Below are positions 27,674 through 35,396 of a DNA stretch of 64,000 nucleotides, piece by piece (the stretch's first letter is position 1; each line of letters opens with the position of its first letter). The notes beneath the pieces were generated by a model, which did no database searches, had not been told where the DNA came from, and was given only the letters and a program-made list of their open reading frames with translations. Origin of the DNA: an uncultured Pseudomonadota bacterium (GTDB lineage: Bacteria; Pseudomonadota; Gammaproteobacteria; Steroidobacterales; Steroidobacteraceae). A program made the position numbers and the translations under genes. The stretch lies in assembly GCA_963736955.1 (NCBI GenBank), contig CAVTQT010000002.1, positions 248,302 to 312,301 of the forward strand, read 5' to 3'.

Positions 27674-28432
27674 ATGGCCAAACCAAAAGCCGGCAAGATC
27701 TTCGTAGGCATCGGCGGCTGGAACTTCGCGCCCTGGCGCGGCAGCTTCTATCCGAAGGGCCTGATGCAGACGCAAGAGCTGCACTACGCGAGCCGCGAGC
27801 TCACCTCGATCGAGATCAACTCGACGTTCTACGGTTTGCAGAAGCCCGCGACGTTCAAGAAGTGGCATGACGAGACGCCGGACGGATTCGTGTTCAGCGT
27901 CAAGGCGCCGAGGTTCGTGACACTACGCAAGAACCTCGCGGAGAGTGCGTCGAGCATCGAGCGCTTCCTCGGGAGCGGTGTTCTGCAACTTGGGCAAAAG
28001 CTCGGCGCGATCAACTGGCAGCTCGCTCCGGGCAAGCGTTTCGATGCGAAGGAGCTGGATGCATTCCTTGCGCTGCTGCCGCGCAAGATCGAGGGCCGCG
28101 CGTTGCGTCACGCGCTCGAAGTGCGCCATGCGAGCTTCGACTGCGAGGAGTTCGTCGCATTGGCGCGCGAACGCCAGGTCGCCGTCGTCGAAGCCGGCGA
28201 TTCGGAATACCCACGCATCCAGGCGCGCAGCGCCCCTTTCAGCTACTTGCGCGTGATGGGCACGAAGGCCAGCGCGCCGAAGGGCTATGCGCCCGCCGCC
28301 CTCGCGCGCTGGCGGGAACATGCGCAGACCCTGGCCCGCGACGGCGATGTGTTCTTCTACTTCATCAGCGGCGCGAAGGAACGCAATCCGCAGGCGGCGC
28401 GCGCGCTGCTCGGAGCTCTCGAGCGGAGTTGA
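27674..28432 (+). CDS. DUF72 domain-containing protein
   Basis: N-terminal IFVGIGGWNFAPWRGSFYPKGL and the overall 250-aa length are typical of DUF72. Confidence 0.8.
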   Translation: MAKPKAGKIFVGIGGWNFAPWRGSFYPKGLMQTQELHYASRELTSIEINSTFYGLQKPATFKKWHDETPDGFVFSVKAPRFVTLRKNLAESASSIERFLGSGVLQLGQKLGAINWQLAPGKRFDAKELDAFLALLPRKIEGRALRHALEVRHASFDCEEFVALARERQVAVVEAGDSEYPRIQARSAPFSYLRVMGTKASAPKGYAPAALARWREHAQTLARDGDVFFYFISGAKERNPQAARALLGALERS

Positions 28433-28433
28433 G

Positions 28434-29580
28434 CTACCAAATCGCGCGCAACGCCCTCAGCAATCGATCGACACCATCCGTCGATCGTCACGTTGCCTGG
28501 CGACACGCGCAGTGTCGTTCCGCGGCAATCCGCGAACACATCTTGTTTGCGCAGCCCGGCGACGACCGCGGCCGGATCGCTGCACTCGCTGGCAAACGAA
28601 ACATCACACTGCCGCCGCGTTCTTCCGCTGACTCTGGGCTCGCCAACTCGAGACCAAGCCCGACGCAGCCCTCGCAGAACCGCCTCGACCAGTGATCGAT
28701 TGTGAGCTAGCAGCTCTGCGGCATTTTGTTGAGCGTGCCAATCCAGCGCAGGCAGGCACGCGGCGCAGGCAAGTATCGACGGCGTGCCGTGATCGAACCG
28801 CCGCGCGTCGGGCGCGTACTCAAATGAGTCGAGTGCCCAGGCGAAAGGATTCTCCTGGCTGAACCAGCCGCGCAATTCGGGCCGGCACTCCTTTAATAGG
28901 CGCTCACGGACCTGCAGCACCCCGGCGCCCGCCACTCCGCACAGCCACTTGAGCGTCGAGCCGACCACGAAGTCCGCATCCGCAGCGCGCACGTCGAACG
29001 GAATGATGCCGACGCCTTGCGTGATATCCACGCCCACCACAGAACCCATCGCGCGACCGTGTTCGACCAGCGCGCGAAGATCGCAGCGATGTGAGGCGGT
29101 GGAGGTCACCCACGTCAGCAGCGCGACACCGACATCCGCGTCCCAGCGCGCGATGAAGTCTTCGTCTCGCACCCAGCATTCGCCGGGTCGCATCGGCACG
29201 GTGTCTATTTCAAATCCCCGCCGCTCGGCCATGCCCGCCAACAGAAAATGCAGGCTCGGGAAGCAATCCGCGGCAATGAGCAGCTTGCGGCCATGCAACC
29301 ATCGATCCGGCAGCGACCCGATGATCGAGTACAGCGCGGTGGTGACATTCTCGGCCGTCGTCAGAGTGCCGGTCGGTGCGCCGATGAGATCACTCCATCG
29401 CGCGATGAATTTCTGCCGGATCTCGAGCGACTGCGGCCACTGAGCGTCATTCGGCGTTCCCCAGAGTGTTGCGACGCGTGCCAGCGCTTCGGCAATGCGC
29501 TCGTCTTTCCCGGGAAACATGCCGATGGAGTGGTACAGGAAGTAGCCGGATCCATCGCTGGTGACCGTCGCCATTTGCAC
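28434..29580 (-). pseudogene. kynureninase-like / class V aminotransferase-fold PLP enzyme, about 3 frame disruptions
   Basis: The N-terminal pattern is YFLYHSIGMFP… The PLP-Lys region is VVGSTLKWLCG. A compensating pair of shifts lies at about 28585/28662: GLGLELASPESAEERGGSVMFRLPAS is readable only in another frame. Another shift near 28480 leads to TAG 28434-36. Confidence 0.65.
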
Positions 29581-29609
29581 AGCATGTCACGATTCGGCAG
29601 GCTGCCACT

Positions 29610-30887
29610 ATGAGCAACCTTTCGGACGCCTTCGACCGATGGATCCGCGGCTCCTTCATGGAGATCAACACGGAGCTCGAGAATCTCTACTTCGCGCAGG
29701 ACCGGACCGGGCGGACGTTTCGCGATGCGGCGAAAACCTGAAGTCGCAACTGCGCGATGAAGGTCACCAGCACGTGGTGGCGCTGCTGGCGGAGGGCGAT
29801 ACCGGCGATGGATTCGAGACTGCGTTCGGTGTGCTCGGAAATGTCGGCATGTACCTGGCTGCGCTGCGGCGTCACGAGCTGACGAACCCGGCGCGCGAGG
29901 AACGCTCACCTTTTCCCGAGGCTTCGTCGCTGGCAATGCATGTCGGCGCGGCGCTCGGCATGGCGCCGCGCTTCTCCACCGCTCACATCGCGCACCTCAA
30001 CTTCGCCAATGCGGGCGTGCGCAAGAGTTTCACGTCGCTGCCCGATGAGATCCTGTTCATCGACGAGAACACGCGCGGCATCCTGCTGCTGCAGCTGGCG
30101 GCCGACGCTCTTGCGAAAGTGGTGCCGCTCGGAATCTCGAGCCCGATCGTCGACGTGCCGTTCGCCGCTGCCAAACACGCGCTCGAAGCGGTGATCGAAT
30201 CCAACCAACGGTTGTTCGACCAACTCGATGTCGACCGATTCTTCTTCTCCGTGCGGCCTTACTACAAGCCTTACAAGGTGGGGCGGCAGGAATATCGCGG
30301 CGCCAACGCCGGCGACTTCTCGGGGATCAACGAGATCGATCTGCTGTTGGGCCTGTGCCGCGCCAACGATCCGTACTACGCGCAGCTGCTCGTGGACAAG
30401 ATGCAGTTCATGCCGCCACAGGACCAGGCGCGCCTGCGCGAGTGCATGCGGCACGAAAGTTTTCTCGATGAGTTGCTGGCGCTTGGCGCCGAGCACGCTC
30501 GCGAGGACTGGTTTCGGCAGCAACGCGCGGGGCTATCTCGAACTTTGCGAGCTGTTTGGGCGATATGCCAGCCAGCACCACGACCATCTCGTGAAGCGCT
30601 TCATCGAAGCGCCTGCGGCGCGGCTCGGCGAAGCGCATCTCGAGAGCATTACCGCCAGCGGGCCTCCGTTGCCCGTGCTGCTGCGGTCCCTCGAAGTGCT
30701 GCGTGACATGCGGCTGGCGGTGAATCGCTCCGACATCGCCACGCGTCACGCGGATCTCGAGCGCCTCCGCAGCTGGGGCCTGGAATCGCGCCTGAACTTG
30801 CGCAGCGCAATACGGCCCATCACTTCTCCCGCGCCTACAAAACTTTCGCCGCCGGATGACATCGCGCCGCGGGTTGCACCGGCATGA
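29610..30887 (+). pseudogene. PrnB/DUF1864-like protein (TDO/IDO heme-dioxygenase superfamily), 2 frame disruptions
   Basis: The core FFFSVRPYYKPYKVGRQEYRGANAGDFSGINEIDLLLG aligns with PrnB …[34 protein letters not shown]. The N-terminus from ATG 29610 hits TGA near 29739, with a frame change near 29728. A second change lies near 30515. Confidence 0.55.
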
Positions 30888-30985
30888 TCTCGTACGGCGC
30901 GGCCGCTGTTCTTCGCGGTCGCGCTGCCGTTCAATGATCGCGCTTCTCTTTCGCCTACAAGCTATCCGCCAACGGATGACATCGC

Positions 30986-31774
30986 ATGCGTAGTAGTAAG
31001 GCCATCATCGGAACCGCGCGACGGCTGATTCTCGCTGTGGTGTTTGCGTTCAGTGTTCCGGCGGTATTCGCGCAGGCGCCGCCCGCGGGCAGTCGTGACG
31101 ATCTGGACGTCACGATGCGAACAATCGGGAATCCGGATGCGAATAGACCCAGACGAGATCGTGCGCAAGATTCCGCCGCCCAAGGCAAAAAAGCGGGCCA
31201 AGGGAACAGACGATCGTGCCGACGACCTCGCCAGCCCAGGCGAGAACGGCGATGGCGACCAAGGGGGCTCAGCGGTCGATCCCGAAAGTCCCGTCGTCCC
31301 AATTGTCCCAGTCGTACCCGACGTACCCGACGCGCCCGCCGCGCCCGACGATACCGGCACACCCGTTCATCCAAATCCAAGCCCAGGCCCAGGTCCGAGT
31401 CCAAGTCCAAGTCCAGGTCCCGGTTCGGATCCGGGAGTACCTGATCATGGCGGTCCAGGAAATGGTCCGGGCAATGGTCCGGGCAACGGGGACGATCACT
31501 CGCCTGGTGGTCCCAAGTCAAAACCGCCCAACCCAAAACATCCCGACCCAAAGCCGCCCGGTCCAAAGGACCCCGGTCCAAAGGATCCCCGGTCCAAAGG
31601 ACACCCAGGACTCCAAAGGATCACGGTCCAAAGGATCACGGTCCAAAGGATCACGGTCCAAAGGACCCCGGTCCAAAGGATCACGGCCCGAAGGACCCTG
31701 GTCCAAAGGATCACGGACCAAAGGACCATGGTCCAAAAGACCACGGTCCAAAGCATGGCCCCGGGCCGGGCTGA
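30986..31774 (+). pseudogene. secreted low-complexity Pro/Gly/Asp/His-rich protein ending in (GPKD[HP])n repeats; reading requires three +1 frame changes
   Basis: The signal peptide is MRSSKAIIGTARRLILAVVFAFSVPAVFA|QAPP (frame of 30986). Then DPDEIVRKIPPPKAKK…PSPGPGPSPSPSPGPG…GPGNGPGNGPGNG…PKHPDPKPPGPKDPGPKDP reads in the frame of 31044. GPKDHGPKDHGPKDHGPKDPGPKDH…GPKHGPGPG* returns to the first frame. TGA is at 31772-74. Confidence 0.5.
31560..31759. repeat. tandem 15-nt repeat array, about 13 units of GGTCCAAAGGA(T/C)C(A/C)C
   Basis: Directly visible. Units start at 31560, 31575, 31591, 31608 (variant), 31625, 31640, 31655, 31670, 31685, 31700, 31715, 31730 and 31745. Unit 2 is 16 nt, and units 3+4 total 34 nt. 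Confidence 0.9.
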
Positions 31775-33035
31775 TGAAGCGTCGCGCTTTGCGGCGATCA
31801 TCGCTTTCCTCGGATTCGCGCTGTTAGGGGGACCGCCCGTCTGGGCCTCGAGCGAAGAGGCCCTGGCGCATTTCACCGAGGGTCAGGCGGCGTTCGCAGC
31901 TGAAGACTTTTCCAAAGCGCGCGCGCACTTCGAGCAGGCGCTGGCGGCCGGGATGGAAGGTCCCGCTATCCAATACAACATTGGAGCCGCAGCCTACCTC
32001 GGAGGAGACCTGCCGCGCGCCGAACGCGCGTTCCTCGAAGTCGCGCGCACGCCGGCAATGGCCGCGCTGGCTCACTACAACCTCGGCCTCGTGGCTCTGC
32101 AACGCCGCGACGAGCGCGAAGCCCGCGACTGGTTCGAGCAAACTACCCAGGATGTTCCGGATGAGCGCCTGGCCGCTCTCGCGTTGGAGCGTCTCGCTGA
32201 GTTACCGGAGGCGCGCGCCCCGGGATACTTCTCGTACTACACGCGAGCCGGTGCCGGTTACGACGACAATATCTCGCTGCGATCGGGTTCGATCGAGAGC
32301 TCGGCAACTGGCGATGAAGATTCGTACGGCGAGCTCATCTTCGGGGGCAGCTATTCATTTGGCGACTGGCGAGTCGATACGGCCGCGGCAATGCTCCGGT
32401 ACACGCACGTCGATGAATTCAACCAGACCGCATTTTCTCTGGGCGGTGCACGCGGCTTCAGGCTGGAAAATTGGTACTTCGAGCTCGGTGCGTACGGCTC
32501 GCAATTTTCACTCGGCGGAGAGGTCTTCGAGCAAAACGTGGCGGTCGGAGCGCAGGCGTCGCGCGCGTTTTACAACGGAAGCCGGCTGAGCGCGCAACTT
32601 CGCGCCACCTCGGTTGACGGCAAGGGCGACTTCCTGGGTCTGACCGGCGATCGCACCGAAGCCGGCGTGTACTACGACTTGACGTGGCGGTCGTGGAACT
32701 TCGGCGCGCATACACGTGCAGAATTCAACGACAGCGAAGATCCGATTTTCGCAACGCGATGGCTGCAACTCGGAGCAGAGGCGCGTTACGCGTGGTCGCC
32801 GACCTGGGGATTCATGGCGATTACCTCACTGCGGCGTACCACACACCCCGCGCAATCCGAGACATTGAGCGGGTGGGACGACAACCGGGCGACGATCCAG
32901 GTGGGCGCCACGCGATCACTCTGGAAGCAGGCGCAGCTGTTCGTGCGTTTCGAGCACGAGCGCAACGATTCACCGGTCGCGGGTTATGACTACGTCCGCA
33001 ACTGGGTCGCGGCTTCCGTCGAGTACTGGCGCTAG
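31755..33035 (+). CDS. TPR + outer-membrane beta-barrel protein (Slam/DUF560-like architecture)
   Basis: An internal signal-peptide-like segment is FAAIIAFLGFALLGGPPVWA|SSEE. About 3 TPR-like helical repeats follow, then an alternating-hydrophobic barrel region starting …YTRAGAGYDDNISL and ending …ASVEYWR. The start is ATG 31755 (in frame) or ATG 31774 (MKRR…, overlapping the upstream TGA as TGATG), which needs a 1-nt indel. Confidence 0.65.
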   Translation: MAPGRADEASRFAAIIAFLGFALLGGPPVWASSEEALAHFTEGQAAFAAEDFSKARAHFEQALAAGMEGPAIQYNIGAAAYLGGDLPRAERAFLEVARTPAMAALAHYNLGLVALQRRDEREARDWFEQTTQDVPDERLAALALERLAELPEARAPGYFSYYTRAGAGYDDNISLRSGSIESSATGDEDSYGELIFGGSYSFGDWRVDTAAAMLRYTHVDEFNQTAFSLGGARGFRLENWYFELGAYGSQFSLGGEVFEQNVAVGAQASRAFYNGSRLSAQLRATSVDGKGDFLGLTGDRTEAGVYYDLTWRSWNFGAHTRAEFNDSEDPIFATRWLQLGAEARYAWSPTWGFMAITSLRRTTHPAQSETLSGWDDNRATIQVGATRSLWKQAQLFVRFEHERNDSPVAGYDYVRNWVAASVEYWR

Positions 33036-33421
33036 CGCGCGACCGCTTCGATGTTGTTGCCGTCCGGATCGAGCACGAATGCACCGTAGTAGGGATTGCT
33101 CGCGCCCTCACGTGGACCCGGTTTGCCGTTGTCACGTCCGCCGGCCGCCATCGCGGCGCGATAGAACTCATCGACCATCGCCTTGTCCTTCGCCGCAAAC
33201 GCCACGTGCATCTGGTTGATGCCGGCGCGCGAGCCTTCGACCCAGTACGACGGGCGAAGCGTCCCAATCCACAGATAGGGAATCTGCCCGGGGCCTCGGC
33301 CTAACAAGAAGAAATCCTTGTGAGGCGTGACGATGCCGAGACCCAGCGCATTGGCGACCGCATCGTAGAACTTGCGGGCCTTGGGGAGATCGGACACGAC
33401 GATGCCGGTGTGATCGAGCAT
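33032..33421 (-). CDS. VOC (glyoxalase/bleomycin-resistance/dioxygenase) family protein
   Basis: 129 aa. The N-terminus is MLDHTGIVVSDLPKARKFY and the C-terminus is …DPDGNNIEAV. Confidence 0.8.
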   Translation of the reverse strand: MLDHTGIVVSDLPKARKFYDAVANALGLGIVTPHKDFFLLGRGPGQIPYLWIGTLRPSYWVEGSRAGINQMHVAFAAKDKAMVDEFYRAAMAAGGRDNGKPGPREGASNPYYGAFVLDPDGNNIEAVAR

Positions 33422-33526: not shown

Positions 33527-34409
33527 CTATTTCGTGCCCACCGCTCCGGCGCTCACGACACTCGGCACACCCTGCGCCTCCATCCACTTGCGAATGCGCC
33601 TCGCATCCGCAGTGCGCGTCAAACTACCGAACGAGTTCAGGAACACCATGTCGACGACACGATCATCGATCATGGTTTGCATGACGAGACACTGGCCCGC
33701 GTCGTTGGTGAAGCCCGTCTTCTGCACGAGGATCTTCCAGTCAGACTTGCCGATCAGCAGATTGGTATTGCGATAAACAAACGGTCGCTTGCCCAGGCGA
33801 ACTTCATGGCTGGGCAGCGTCGAGTATTCGCGGATGACGGAATTGCGCGTTGTCGCGTTGACGAGTTTCACCAGGTCTCGCGCACTCGACACATTGAGAC
33901 TCGACAATCCGGACGGGTCGTCGAAGTGCGTCTGCGTCATGCCGAGCGCCTTGGCCTTCAGGTTCATCGTGCGGACGAACGCGGACATCCCGCCGGGGTA
34001 GTTGCGCGCGAGGGTGCGCGCGGCGAGGTTCTCGGAGGCCATCAACGCAAGCCGCAGCAGATCACCGCGCGTCAGTTTTGTCGCCATTGGGGAGATGTGA
34101 GAAGGCGCCTTTGCCTTTCCAGCGATCCTCCGCCTTGATGGTGATGACTTCGTCGAGCGACTGCAGGCCGTCGAGCACGACGAGCGCGGTCATGAGCTTG
34201 GTGATCGACGCGATGGGCGTGACCAGCTTCGGCTGGCGCTCGAAGATCAATTCGCCGGTGTTGCCGTCGACCACCAGTACGGACGCGGATCGTACTTCTG
34301 GCGTAGCGCCGGGCTTGGGCGATGCGGCATTCGCGCTGGGTCCGAAACCGAGCAGGCACGCAATCAGCGCGCCCGCGAAAATCGCGCCACCGTAGAGACC
34401 TCGCTGCAT
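33527..34409 (-). pseudogene. D-alanyl-D-alanine endopeptidase/carboxypeptidase (S11, PbpG-like), one frame disruption near 34085
   Basis: SxxK (SITKLMT) lies in the 34062-34499 ORF. SxN (ASEN) and KTG (QKTGFT) lie in the 33527-34087 ORF. The signal peptide starts at MQRGLYGG…. Confidence 0.8.
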
Positions 34410-34465
34410 CTTCCCCTGCTCCCACCGCCGAATCATTCCAGGAAGCGATGGTAAGCCGAAGTGCA

Positions 34466-35396
34466 TCACTCTGCACGCGCGCCGAATCGCTCGAACCACG
34501 CAACGGTGGCTGCGTCACGCTCCGCGCCGCGTCCGCCGATGACGTGCTGCTGCCCTTCGAAAACCCTGAACTCGTGCAGCTTGTCGAGTCGCGAGAGCTC
34601 GGCATCCATGCGTTGCGACTGCGATAGGGGAATGTCCTCATCCGCTCCACCATGCATGATGAGCAACGGCAGGTTGATCTTGTCCGCCCACCGCAGCGCA
34701 GAGCGCGTTCGATAGAGTTCCTCGCGATTGTTCTCGTACTGGGGCCAGATCGAGGTGGCGGCCCCGGCCTGAGGACCCGCGGCCAGCAAGGGCTGGAGAT
34801 CTGTGAAAGCTCCCCACACGGCTGCTGCCCGCGCCGGAAATCCGTCGCGCAGTGCCATATAAACCATGGCGCCCCCGCGCGATTCTCCCGCCAGGAAGAG
34901 CCGCGAGGGGTCGGCACCCTGGATGCGCGCGATTTCGCGCGGCAGATTCAGGAGGTCGTGCAGGTCCGCACCACCGAGCTCATCGCGCCCTGCCCAGCCA
35001 TTGCTGCCGCGATACTGGGGCGCGACGACGATGAAGCCAGCTTCGGCGAAGCGATGCGCCATCACCAGCATCTCGCCGGCGAAACCCTTCGGGCCGCACG
35101 TAGCTGCCGCGATTGAAGATGACGACGGGCATTCGCTCACGGTGCGGCTCCCGTGCACGGTAGAGATAGGCGCCAACGGTCAGGCCATCGCTCACATAGG
35201 TGAATTGCTGAAAGAGGAAACGACCGTCCGCGCGTGCCGCTTCGTACGCTTCGCGGCTGGAAGCCCAGCCGATGCCGCGATCGCTCTCGTAGTCCGGTAT
35301 CTCAACCGTTTTCAGGTTGGGCAATTCCTCGGCCTGGCGAGGGTTACCGGCGCATGCAGCCAGTACCAGGATGCAAACAGCAATCAGCATCTTCAT
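34466..35396 (-). pseudogene. alpha/beta hydrolase (S9 peptidase/dienelactone hydrolase-like) lipoprotein, one frame disruption near 35085
   Basis: The lipobox is LVLAAC. The N-terminal fragment ends …PVVIFNRGSYVRPEGF. The second ORF carries …APQYRGSNGW…, the nucleophile elbow GESRGG and …LLIMHGGADEDIP. Confidence 0.7.

Follow-up and report, generated by a model that had tools for sequence, protein, structure and literature searches.

What is a secreted, Pro-rich protein of low sequence complexity doing beside an outer-membrane protein (OMP) whose gene overlaps its own? The question is raised by a stretch of 64,000 nucleotides on contig CAVTQT010000002.1 of an uncultured Steroidobacteraceae bacterium; this whole stretch is termed the window. 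At positions 30986–33035 the window carries two overlapping genes, the first for a Pro-rich secreted protein (here the small protein) and the second for an OMP with tetratricopeptide repeats (TPRs) and a beta-barrel. A preliminary description of this DNA, made from its letters alone, proposed that the two might be a cargo and its translocon, comparable to Slam (DUF560) proteins and the type XI secretion system (T11SS). The gene pair, so far unstudied, is real and occurs widely; the barrel probably exports or anchors the small protein, but what the pair does is unproven, and T11SS membership is not established. The reading favoured here, to which a probability of roughly 0.45 may be given, is that of a dedicated pair of OMP and partner, with export or threading of the partner's tail.

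The gene pair and its reading frames

A contig scan gave 23 OMP loci, from metagenome-assembled genomes of Steroidobacteraceae and Woeseiaceae. A small open reading frame (ORF) is found directly upstream of the OMP gene, on the same strand, in all 20 of the loci that have enough upstream DNA, and the adjacency is kept even where OMP identity is only 26–30% (Woeseiaceae). A loss of the upstream gene in relatives, which the preliminary description had named as evidence against a pair, was seen in none of these 20. In clade 1, to which the window pair belongs, the distance from the small-gene stop to the OMP start ranges from -32 to +4 nt and is -20 nt in the window; in Woeseiaceae the two genes are separated by ∼100–170 nt. 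Because the second gene overlaps the first, the OMP gene is probably co-translated with the small gene. The features of the window pair are as follows.

30986–31072, + strand: Sec signal peptide of the small protein, 29 amino acids, cleaved between VFA and Q (translation, remainder-2 frame)
31091–31193, + strand: conserved N-terminal linear motif SRDDLDVTMRTIGNPDANRPDEIVRKIPPPKAKK, spanning frameshift 1 (alignments)
31148–31150, + strand: frameshift 1, one extra C in a CCC run (DNA alignment with contig L001)
31194–31588, + strand: acidic/Pro low-complexity sequence, (PS/PG)n, (GPGN)3, PKxP and the first GPKDP units (remainder-0 frame)
31589–31612 (about 31600–31612), + strand: frameshift 2, one base missing relative to a continuous reading (comparison with contig L030)
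31613–31774, + strand: GPKD[H/P] array and C-terminus ...GPKHGPGPG, with stop TGA at 31772–31774 (remainder-2 frame)
31755–31847, + strand: OMP start ATG 31755 and signal peptide MAPGRADEASRFAAIIAFLGFALLGGPPVWA, cleaved before SSEE (conservation of the ATG, N-termini of homologues)
31854–32201, + strand: periplasmic TPR domain, ∼3.5 repeats, seven helices at residues 34–149 (Pfam and AlphaFold2, AF2)
32226–33035, + strand: 14-strand outer-membrane beta-barrel ending ...ASVEYWR, and stop (AF2, Foldseek)

Frames are named by the remainder left when the first position of a codon is divided by 3, and the window ORFs were read from an ORF listing together with a three-frame translation. From ATG 30986 the remainder-2 frame gives MRSSKAIIGTARRLILAVVFAFSVPAVFA and, after the cleavage site, QAPPAGSRDDLDVTMRTIGNPDAN; Arg-rich nonsense follows and ends in a stop at 31444. 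The remainder-0 frame includes the first two GPKDP units. Joining the segments of the small gene takes two single-base changes, the removal of one C and the addition of one base, and correction of frameshift 1 brings back the N-terminal motif. The corrected protein is 262 amino acids long and its mature part consists of 25% Pro, 17% Gly, 14% Asp, 9.5% Lys and 5.6% His. The acidic/Pro region at 31194–31588 is homologous to the tails of three related loci (L031, L001 and L003), and the C-terminal end matches those of L001 and L031. The Sec signal peptide (MRSSKAIIGTARRLILAVVFAFSVPAVFA followed by QAPP), the acidic/Pro block, (PS/PG)n, (GPGN)3, PKxP and the GPKD[H/P] pentads noted in the preliminary description are all present. 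The single continuous protein that it assembled from them is split between two frames in the window, but the stitched reading is right, as the ORF is intact in L031.

No stop codon interrupts the remainder-0 frame between 31044 and 33035 (663 amino acids), because the repeat DNA has none in that frame. The OMP is read in this frame; its nearest start is ATG 31755, which overlaps the small gene by 20 nt up to the stop at 31772–31774 and is shared by the window, L001 and L030. A different coupling had been suggested, through a TGATG in which the small-gene stop runs into the start of a product beginning MKRR. That ATG, at 31774, lies in the third frame and the reading stops after 17 codons, both in the window and in three related contigs.

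The two breaks in the small gene are assembly or sequencing errors, since the gene is uninterrupted in L031 and since single extra bases also interrupt two other genes of the window. The OMP of L031, a JGI short-read contig, is 92% identical, and the small gene of this contig is one ORF with the same signal peptide, ...GPKDHGPRDHGPKDHGPKDHGPKDH... with GPKDH units, and the same HGPGPG end. L001 (OMP 93% identical) continues in one frame across the first break (...NPDAIEPDEIVRKIPPPKAKK), and therefore the extra C is placed in the CCC run of the window. Compared with L030, a 98.2% identical Illumina contig, the window has an extra repeat segment of 20 nt at 31589–31608, which is not a multiple of 3, and is short of one 15-nt unit at 31729. 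The single extra bases in the other two genes, at 34080 and 35090, are outside repeats and absent from L030. The window is an indel-prone assembly, and readings made from it at the level of ORFs call for checking. Short-read contigs such as L030 break inside the repeat.

The repeat itself is a tandem array of 15-nt units at 31557–31753 (12.8 copies, 82% matches, score 223 with Tandem Repeats Finder). It encodes about 11 clear and two degenerate GPKD[H/P] units and is far beyond chance; shorter arrays of 6, 9 and 12 nt are also present. With respect to codon usage, the G+C content at third codon positions (GC3) of the tail in its true frame (31330–31774) is ∼0.4–0.5, compared with 0.7–0.87 in the OMP gene. 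The GPKDH unit GGTCCAAAGGATCAC has a GC3 of 2/5, and the out-of-frame VQRIT reading of the same unit one of 4/5. The codons GAC-CAT-GGT (DHG) create ATGs in the OMP frame inside the repeats, as at 31728.

Many public gene calls for the OMP are 480–620 amino acids long through a wrong-frame upstream extension across the stop-free repeats, and these extensions display pseudo-repeats such as 'RITVQ' and 'TGVTNAM'. Examples are P0001, P0003, P0005, P0006, P0013, P0020 and P0029, as well as P0036, P0060, P0074, P0087, P0090 and others. Natural fusions of partner and OMP were considered among the long database gene calls, and all proved to be wrong-frame extensions of this kind.

The small protein and the TPR-barrel

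The small protein belongs to a family with a constant order of parts: a signal peptide, an N-terminal motif, a charged linker, a helix (GREFGQQVSEEARQRSEEARRNK) and a Pro-rich tail. The A-x-A|Q cleavage site is conserved across the family. The N-terminal motif, ∼30 amino acids in length, has the family form DDLDVTMRVIVDPDAKVPDEIVRRIPLPKP, in which T, P and I.LP are invariant in the alignments. At least 611 homologues of ∼130–145 amino acids match a profile built from the N-terminal part; all are annotated 'hypothetical' and have no Pfam domain. The window protein likewise has no Pfam or NCBIfam domain, and its repeat region has no Pfam match at E≤1. An AF2 model of a typical member of 139 amino acids, made with 100 homologues, shows only the signal-peptide helix and one long helix (residues 80–115) whose predicted local distance difference test score (pLDDT) reaches 93. 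The N-terminal motif and the Pro-rich tail are unstructured in the model, and there is no beta structure. The upstream product is secreted, disordered and outside any described family, much as first described. The window species has deleted the central helix of the family, and the helix is gone from independent contigs of the same species as well.

The tail is hypervariable. Most members have a short PPxPPGxPPGG tail, L003 and L005 have PRDPPRDHQPPGQQ, L004 and L019 have GHDPGHGP, and L007 and L009 have PRGPPNDxPRRPPDD. The tail of L002 (5775–6491) is a ∼70-amino-acid polyampholyte of alternating RE and RD (EREREEAREARERERER...) in place of Pro-rich sequence. Because L002 makes this exchange, selection may act on the extended, charged character of the tail rather than on Pro or His as such. 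RE/RD alternation is a type of sequence that forms single alpha-helix rods.

GPKD[H/P] units are found only in the lineage of the window. The number of repeat units varies among strains that are 92–98% identical, and the GC3 of the tail is below that of the OMP gene in every related locus. Lineage-specific units, changes in copy number and a relaxed GC3 are typical of exposed or spacer sequence, and the hypervariability and repeat expansion of the tail would favour surface exposure. His is missing from most tails of the family, and a function in binding metal through His can therefore be at most a lineage-specific addition; His/Asp-rich tails do occur in several clade-1 lineages. The GPKDH pentads, from which a possible role in metal binding had been drawn, are one lineage's version of a variable tail and no trait of the family, so that such a role cannot be the core function. 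A contribution of the His, Asp and Lys residues of the window tail to metal binding or hydration may be imagined.

The label pentapeptide-repeat protein applies in its literal sense only. The repeat region has no match at E≤1 to the Pfam Pentapeptide family, with its A(D/N)LXX-type units. Proteins of that family form a right-handed quadrilateral beta-helix, with which the Pro- and Gly-rich GPKD[H/P] units are incompatible. The pentads of the window tail, with one His each, recall the GHHPH units of histidine-rich glycoprotein. In its alternation of acidic and basic residues with Pro, the tail is similar to the (EP)n(KP)n segment of TonB, a periplasm-spanning spacer, and is likely to be extended, of the polyproline-II type. 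Both resemblances are compositional only. Unlike TonB and histidine-rich glycoprotein, the window protein ends without a globular domain, and apart from its cleavable signal peptide nothing anchors it to a membrane. Literature searches for the repeat, and for a module of ECF (extracytoplasmic function) sigma factor, TPR-barrel and Pro-rich protein, found nothing relevant.

In the OMP, the TPRs and the C-terminal beta region ending VEYWR had been recognized from the sequence, and Pfam models TPR_16, TPR_2 and TPR_1 match at E=1e-10 to 1e-7. Beyond the TPRs, the window OMP has no Pfam or NCBIfam assignment. An AF2 model from an alignment of 54 sequences has a mean pLDDT of 87.9 and shows the signal-peptide helix, seven TPR helices and a barrel of exactly 14 strands (residues 158–425, pLDDT mostly >90). 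TPRs followed by 14 strands are the layout of Slam, in line with what had been suggested as a possibility. Foldseek searches against the PDB, in a set without a Slam structure, give OmpG (14 strands, template-modelling score 0.68–0.72), CymA and the TPR-barrel BcsC, and otherwise generic barrels of 14–18 strands. A profile of the OMP compared with PDB sequences finds TPR proteins only and nothing for the barrel.

A word-indexed protein search gave 257 matches to the OMP, mostly 415–421 amino acids in length and named only 'TPR repeat protein'. With a profile of the barrel alone, 322 clusters (at 50% identity) were found among 1.84 billion representative proteins at E≤1e-3; nearly all are 415–440 amino acids long and have the barrel at the same position. 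Family membership was assessed for the window OMP, for a close set of 54 homologues and for 89 more remote barrel relatives with 20–38% identity. The window OMP has no match to PF04575 (SlipAM/DUF560) at E≤1, the gathering score being 22 bits, nor does SlipAM figure in the list of 25 families obtained with the 54 close homologues at E≤10. TPR_Slam gives the window OMP E=0.2 (12.5 bits versus a cut-off of 35.2 bits), TIGR03016 gives 16.2 bits versus a cut-off of 90.85, and there is no match to BBP2_2 (PF10082).

Among the 89 remote members, SlipAM/DUF560 matches 35 (best 2.2e-9) and TPR_Slam matches 35. BBP2_2 matches 53 of them (best 9.5e-11) and, weakly, 15 of the 54 close homologues (best 1.6e-4); TIGR03016 matches 60 of the remote members (best 6e-9) and EpsL (TIGR03014) 23. 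The SlipAM cases that were inspected are borderline, such as P0393 with 22.3 bits against the 22-bit cut-off, and mostly cover the last strands. A few remote members exceed 23.7 bits for BBP2_2, for example P0335 with 29.3, over the last strands only. By profile similarity, then, the barrel appears to belong to a broad neighbourhood of BBP2_2, EpsL and DUF560 barrels, and the window OMP as such falls outside DUF560. The proposed DUF560 assignment is in this way confined to borderline matches in remote relatives, for which BBP2_2 and EpsL are at least as good. As for a porin or a polysaccharide-export family, an assignment that was to count against the proposal, the barrel falls cleanly into neither.

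A paralogous pair in an ECF operon

Many genomes have two paralogous pairs of small gene and OMP gene. L004 and L012 are on one contig, as are L016 and L020, and L003 has two pairs. The clade-2 pair, and the single pair of Woeseiaceae, are found in a tight operon with the order DUF4382 lipoprotein, ECF sigma factor, anti-sigma factor, small protein and OMP. In L028 and L029 the DUF4382 gene is upstream on the opposite strand and not in line. In the Woeseiaceae loci the anti-sigma gene matches zf-HC2 with E∼4e-4. A canonical ECF promoter, GGGAACC-N12-CGTTCGTGTC, precedes the paralogous operon in 10 loci of Steroidobacteraceae, including the following.

L027, 7283–7311: ECF promoter site
L011, 3411–3439: ECF promoter site
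L013, 3065–3093: ECF promoter site
L014, 3385–3413: ECF promoter site
L015, 3202–3230: ECF promoter site
L018, 3395–3423: ECF promoter site
L003, 10539–10567: ECF promoter site
L021, 4217–4245: ECF promoter site

The promoter upstream of the operon indicates an autoregulated ECF unit. The preliminary description had missed the paralogous pair, and because this pair sits in an operon with sigma and anti-sigma genes, a role in signalling stays open. The window has only a clade-1 pair, with no paralogous operon and no sigma or anti-sigma gene beside the pair, and the promoter motif is absent from the whole 64 kb, including the region upstream of the pair. The paralogous operon offers a built-in genetic read-out of function.

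Clade-1 small genes have an upstream element of their own, which in the window is present as a direct repeat.

30823–30865, + strand: upstream copy of a 43-nt direct repeat (repeat search, alignment)
30943–30985, + strand: second copy of the 43-nt direct repeat, ending at the start codon, with GGATGA at the Shine-Dalgarno position

The two copies are 77% identical and 120 nt apart. The core of the element, CGCCTACA-N15-GGATGACA(T/G)CGC, is conserved upstream of the clade-1 small genes in eight of the eight loci compared; CCTACA and GGA..ACA.C are invariant in the alignment of the eight. The element is absent upstream of the paralogue in the ECF operon. A search of Rfam with 30500–33300 gave nothing meaningful, and no family for the 43-nt element; a sigma-70 promoter scan found no promoter, the element does not fit that consensus, and terminator matches were no more than expected by chance. 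The element is a candidate promoter, read by some sigma factor, or a candidate operator. A 'leader ORF' starting from the conserved GGATGAC was also considered and rejected, as neither frame nor peptide is conserved among the window, L001 and L003.

Export, signalling and other readings

How might the pair work? The first gene gives a Sec-exported, non-lipidated and disordered protein, consisting of the N-terminal motif of ∼30 amino acids and a hypervariable, polyampholytic, Pro-rich tail, which in the lineage of the window is the ∼13 GPKD[H/P] pentads. The second gives an OMP with a periplasmic TPR domain, and its 14-strand barrel is a distant relative of the BBP2_2/EpsL and DUF560 barrels. 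In the favoured reading, after Sec export the motif may dock on the TPR domain or on the barrel of its cognate OMP, and the extended tail may then be threaded through the 14-strand pore, which has an OmpG-like geometry, to be displayed on the cell surface or released from it. Capture of the motif with the tail in the pore would be the most economical mechanism, and the pair would function like a T11SS pair with a different recognition element. The ancestral copy belonged to the autoregulated ECF operon; the window copy would be a paralogue that left this operon and gained a conserved upstream element of its own, with loss of the central helix and expansion of the tail.

The comparison with T11SS is close in layout. 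There the OMP is the only required component and cargo genes are usually adjacent. The window OMP has the N-terminal periplasmic TPRs and the 14 strands, its partner gene is adjacent and co-oriented, and remote members of the barrel family match both SlipAM and TPR_Slam. Environmental DUF560 clusters have no characterized member. The differences lie in the lack of a PF04575 match and in the partner. What known and predicted T11SS cargo share, even where the N-terminus is disordered, is an 8-strand barrel at the C-terminus (TbpBBD/lipoprotein C-type), whereas the window partner is not a lipoprotein and has no such barrel; its conserved element is a linear motif at the N-terminus. In addition, the ancestral context here is an ECF sigma operon and not a locus for TonB, heme or metal uptake. 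Of the proposed cargo–translocon pair, the conserved and usually overlapping gene arrangement stands, but the partner is without the cargo barrel.

Several observations weigh against export. The DUF560 matches of the relatives are borderline and mostly limited to the last strands, and the window OMP has none; the partner is without the barrel that unifies T11SS cargo. The tight overlap of stop and start suggests a 1:1 stoichiometry, as of a structural or regulatory complex rather than a bulk cargo. Signalling would account just as well for the ECF sigma and anti-sigma genes beside the paralogue. Finally, L033, a remote barrel relative, has no partner gene upstream, so that the members from Steroidobacteraceae and Woeseiaceae are the only part of the barrel family in which the partnership is demonstrated.

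If export is nonetheless correct, a Slam/T11SS-type architecture would reach a large environmental clade of 322 barrel clusters and at least 611 partners, whose proteins are annotated only as 'hypothetical' or 'TPR protein'. The partner would break the sole rule that now defines T11SS cargo, the C-terminal beta-barrel, and the pair would be a tractable case for how a 14-strand barrel recognizes and handles a fully disordered substrate. A bolder version, which we consider rather improbable, is that the TPR-barrel is a deep sister of the Slam/T11SS and BBP2_2 barrels, one that recognizes an N-terminal linear motif and threads a disordered Pro-rich polymer to the surface. In the ancestral pair, occupancy or failure of the translocon would be reported to the ECF sigma factor by way of the anti-sigma factor, and the window copy would provide a hypervariable, zwitterionic, His-bearing surface coat. 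This would amount to an envelope module of Steroidobacterales and Woeseiales not recognized before, and to a secretion-coupled circuit for sensing the surface.

A periplasmic signalling or adaptor role is a close rival of export and nearly as likely, because there is no cargo barrel, the DUF560 matches are weak, the overlap is tight and the context of the paralogue is an ECF operon. The form it might take, doubtful in itself, is that the small protein never crosses the outer membrane and binds the TPR domain of the OMP. In the ancestral operon the anti-sigma factor, through its periplasmic domain, would be a second binding partner. The small protein would then serve the ECF envelope-signalling pathway as sensor, adaptor or spacer, like CnrX, RseB or an RcsF-like monitor of an OMP, and the window copy would be a duplicated, derived version. 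The tight operon in both Steroidobacteraceae and Woeseiaceae, with its promoter in 10 loci, speaks for such a role; TPR domains typically bind extended peptides, the N-terminal motif is unstructured on its own in the AF2 model, and overlapping genes suggest stoichiometric complexes. Yet neither a sigma nor an anti-sigma gene accompanies the window pair, and the 64 kb have no promoter of the ECF type. A periplasmic adaptor would not usually see its tail grow from ∼25 to ∼190 residues with a lineage-specific repeat unit, and the window species can do without the one helix predicted for the family.

Precedents exist for parts of both the export and the signalling reading. RcsF in OmpA/C/F and LptE in LptD are proteins threaded through or plugged into barrels; both are lipoproteins with folded domains. 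The window pair resembles them in joining a specific barrel to a small envelope protein that has a disordered, charged or Pro-rich segment, and RcsF also in the tie to an envelope-stress regulator (Rcs there, an ECF sigma factor here). The window partner has no detectable homology to either, and threading is a proposal here. The gene content of the paralogous operon, with sigma factor, anti-sigma factor, secreted protein and OMP, is similar to that of FecIRA, HasISR/HasA and SigX-CfrX-CmpX-OprF (ECF102), and the SigX/OprF operon is a precedent for an OMP inside an ECF operon. The OMP here differs in not being a TonB-dependent transducer, and the window copy differs in having no sigma factor, anti-sigma factor or ECF promoter.

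An improbable third explanation makes the OMP a channel of the BBP2_2/EpsL type for solutes or polymers, porin-like or polysaccharide-associated. The small protein would be no more than a polyampholyte of the periplasm, expressed alongside the OMP and perhaps acting as a metal buffer or as a spacer in the style of the TonB rod, with no specific interaction with the OMP. BBP2_2, EpsL and TIGR03016 (a PEP-CTERM-associated OMP) are among the nearest barrel families and have the best sequence-level similarity to the barrel in the extended OMP family, the structure is nearest to the OmpG and CymA channels and to BcsC, and several clade-1 lineages have His/Asp-rich tails. However, these family matches cover mostly the C-terminal strands, all are far below the trusted NCBIfam cut-offs, and the three families differ from the window OMP in lacking both fused TPRs and a small secreted protein as partner. 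Genes for glycosyltransferases, Wza/Wzc or other exopolysaccharide functions, or PEP-CTERM proteins, were not found near the window pair or in loci L001–L003 and L027–L031. His richness is not a family trait, and strict adjacency across deep divergence, together with the conserved N-terminal motif, argues for a specific partnership.

Least likely is that the frameshifts in the repeats are real and the small gene of the window a true pseudogene, or else a phase-variable contingency locus, only the OMP or the 663-amino-acid ORF being made: both frame changes are in or near simple repeats, the remainder-0 frame is open throughout and L001 is also frame-broken, at other positions, but frameshift 1 itself is outside the repeats and in a conserved motif, the gene is intact in L031, the 663-amino-acid reading has no N-terminal signal peptide, its 'RITVQ' repeats are the wrong-frame ones that many database gene calls also show, and two neighbouring housekeeping-type genes and a PrnB-like gene are split as well.

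33527–34499: peptidase S11 or D-Ala-D-Ala endopeptidase-like gene, split in two overlapping ORFs (extra base 34080); intact in L030
34466–35396: DLH/S9 hydrolase gene, split in two overlapping ORFs (extra base 35090); intact in L030
29561–30887, + strand: PrnB-like gene (PF08933), split in two overlapping ORFs; the orthologue in L031 is a single gene of 395 amino acids

Two other aspects of the neighbourhood may be mentioned. A glyoxalase-family gene (33032–33421, - strand) converges on the OMP gene and overlaps its stop by 4 nt; L001 and L030 have the gene as well. According to the literature, the domains that co-occur most with marine cluster-3 T11SS OMPs include the glyoxalase domain, a parallel that may be coincidence. 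Directly upstream of the pair, a kynureninase-like/aminotransferase class V gene (28357–29580, - strand) and the PrnB-family gene (29561–30887, + strand) are divergent, and the arrangement is the same in L001 and L031. These two genes look like a module for a tryptophan-derived metabolite, unrelated to the OMP pair.

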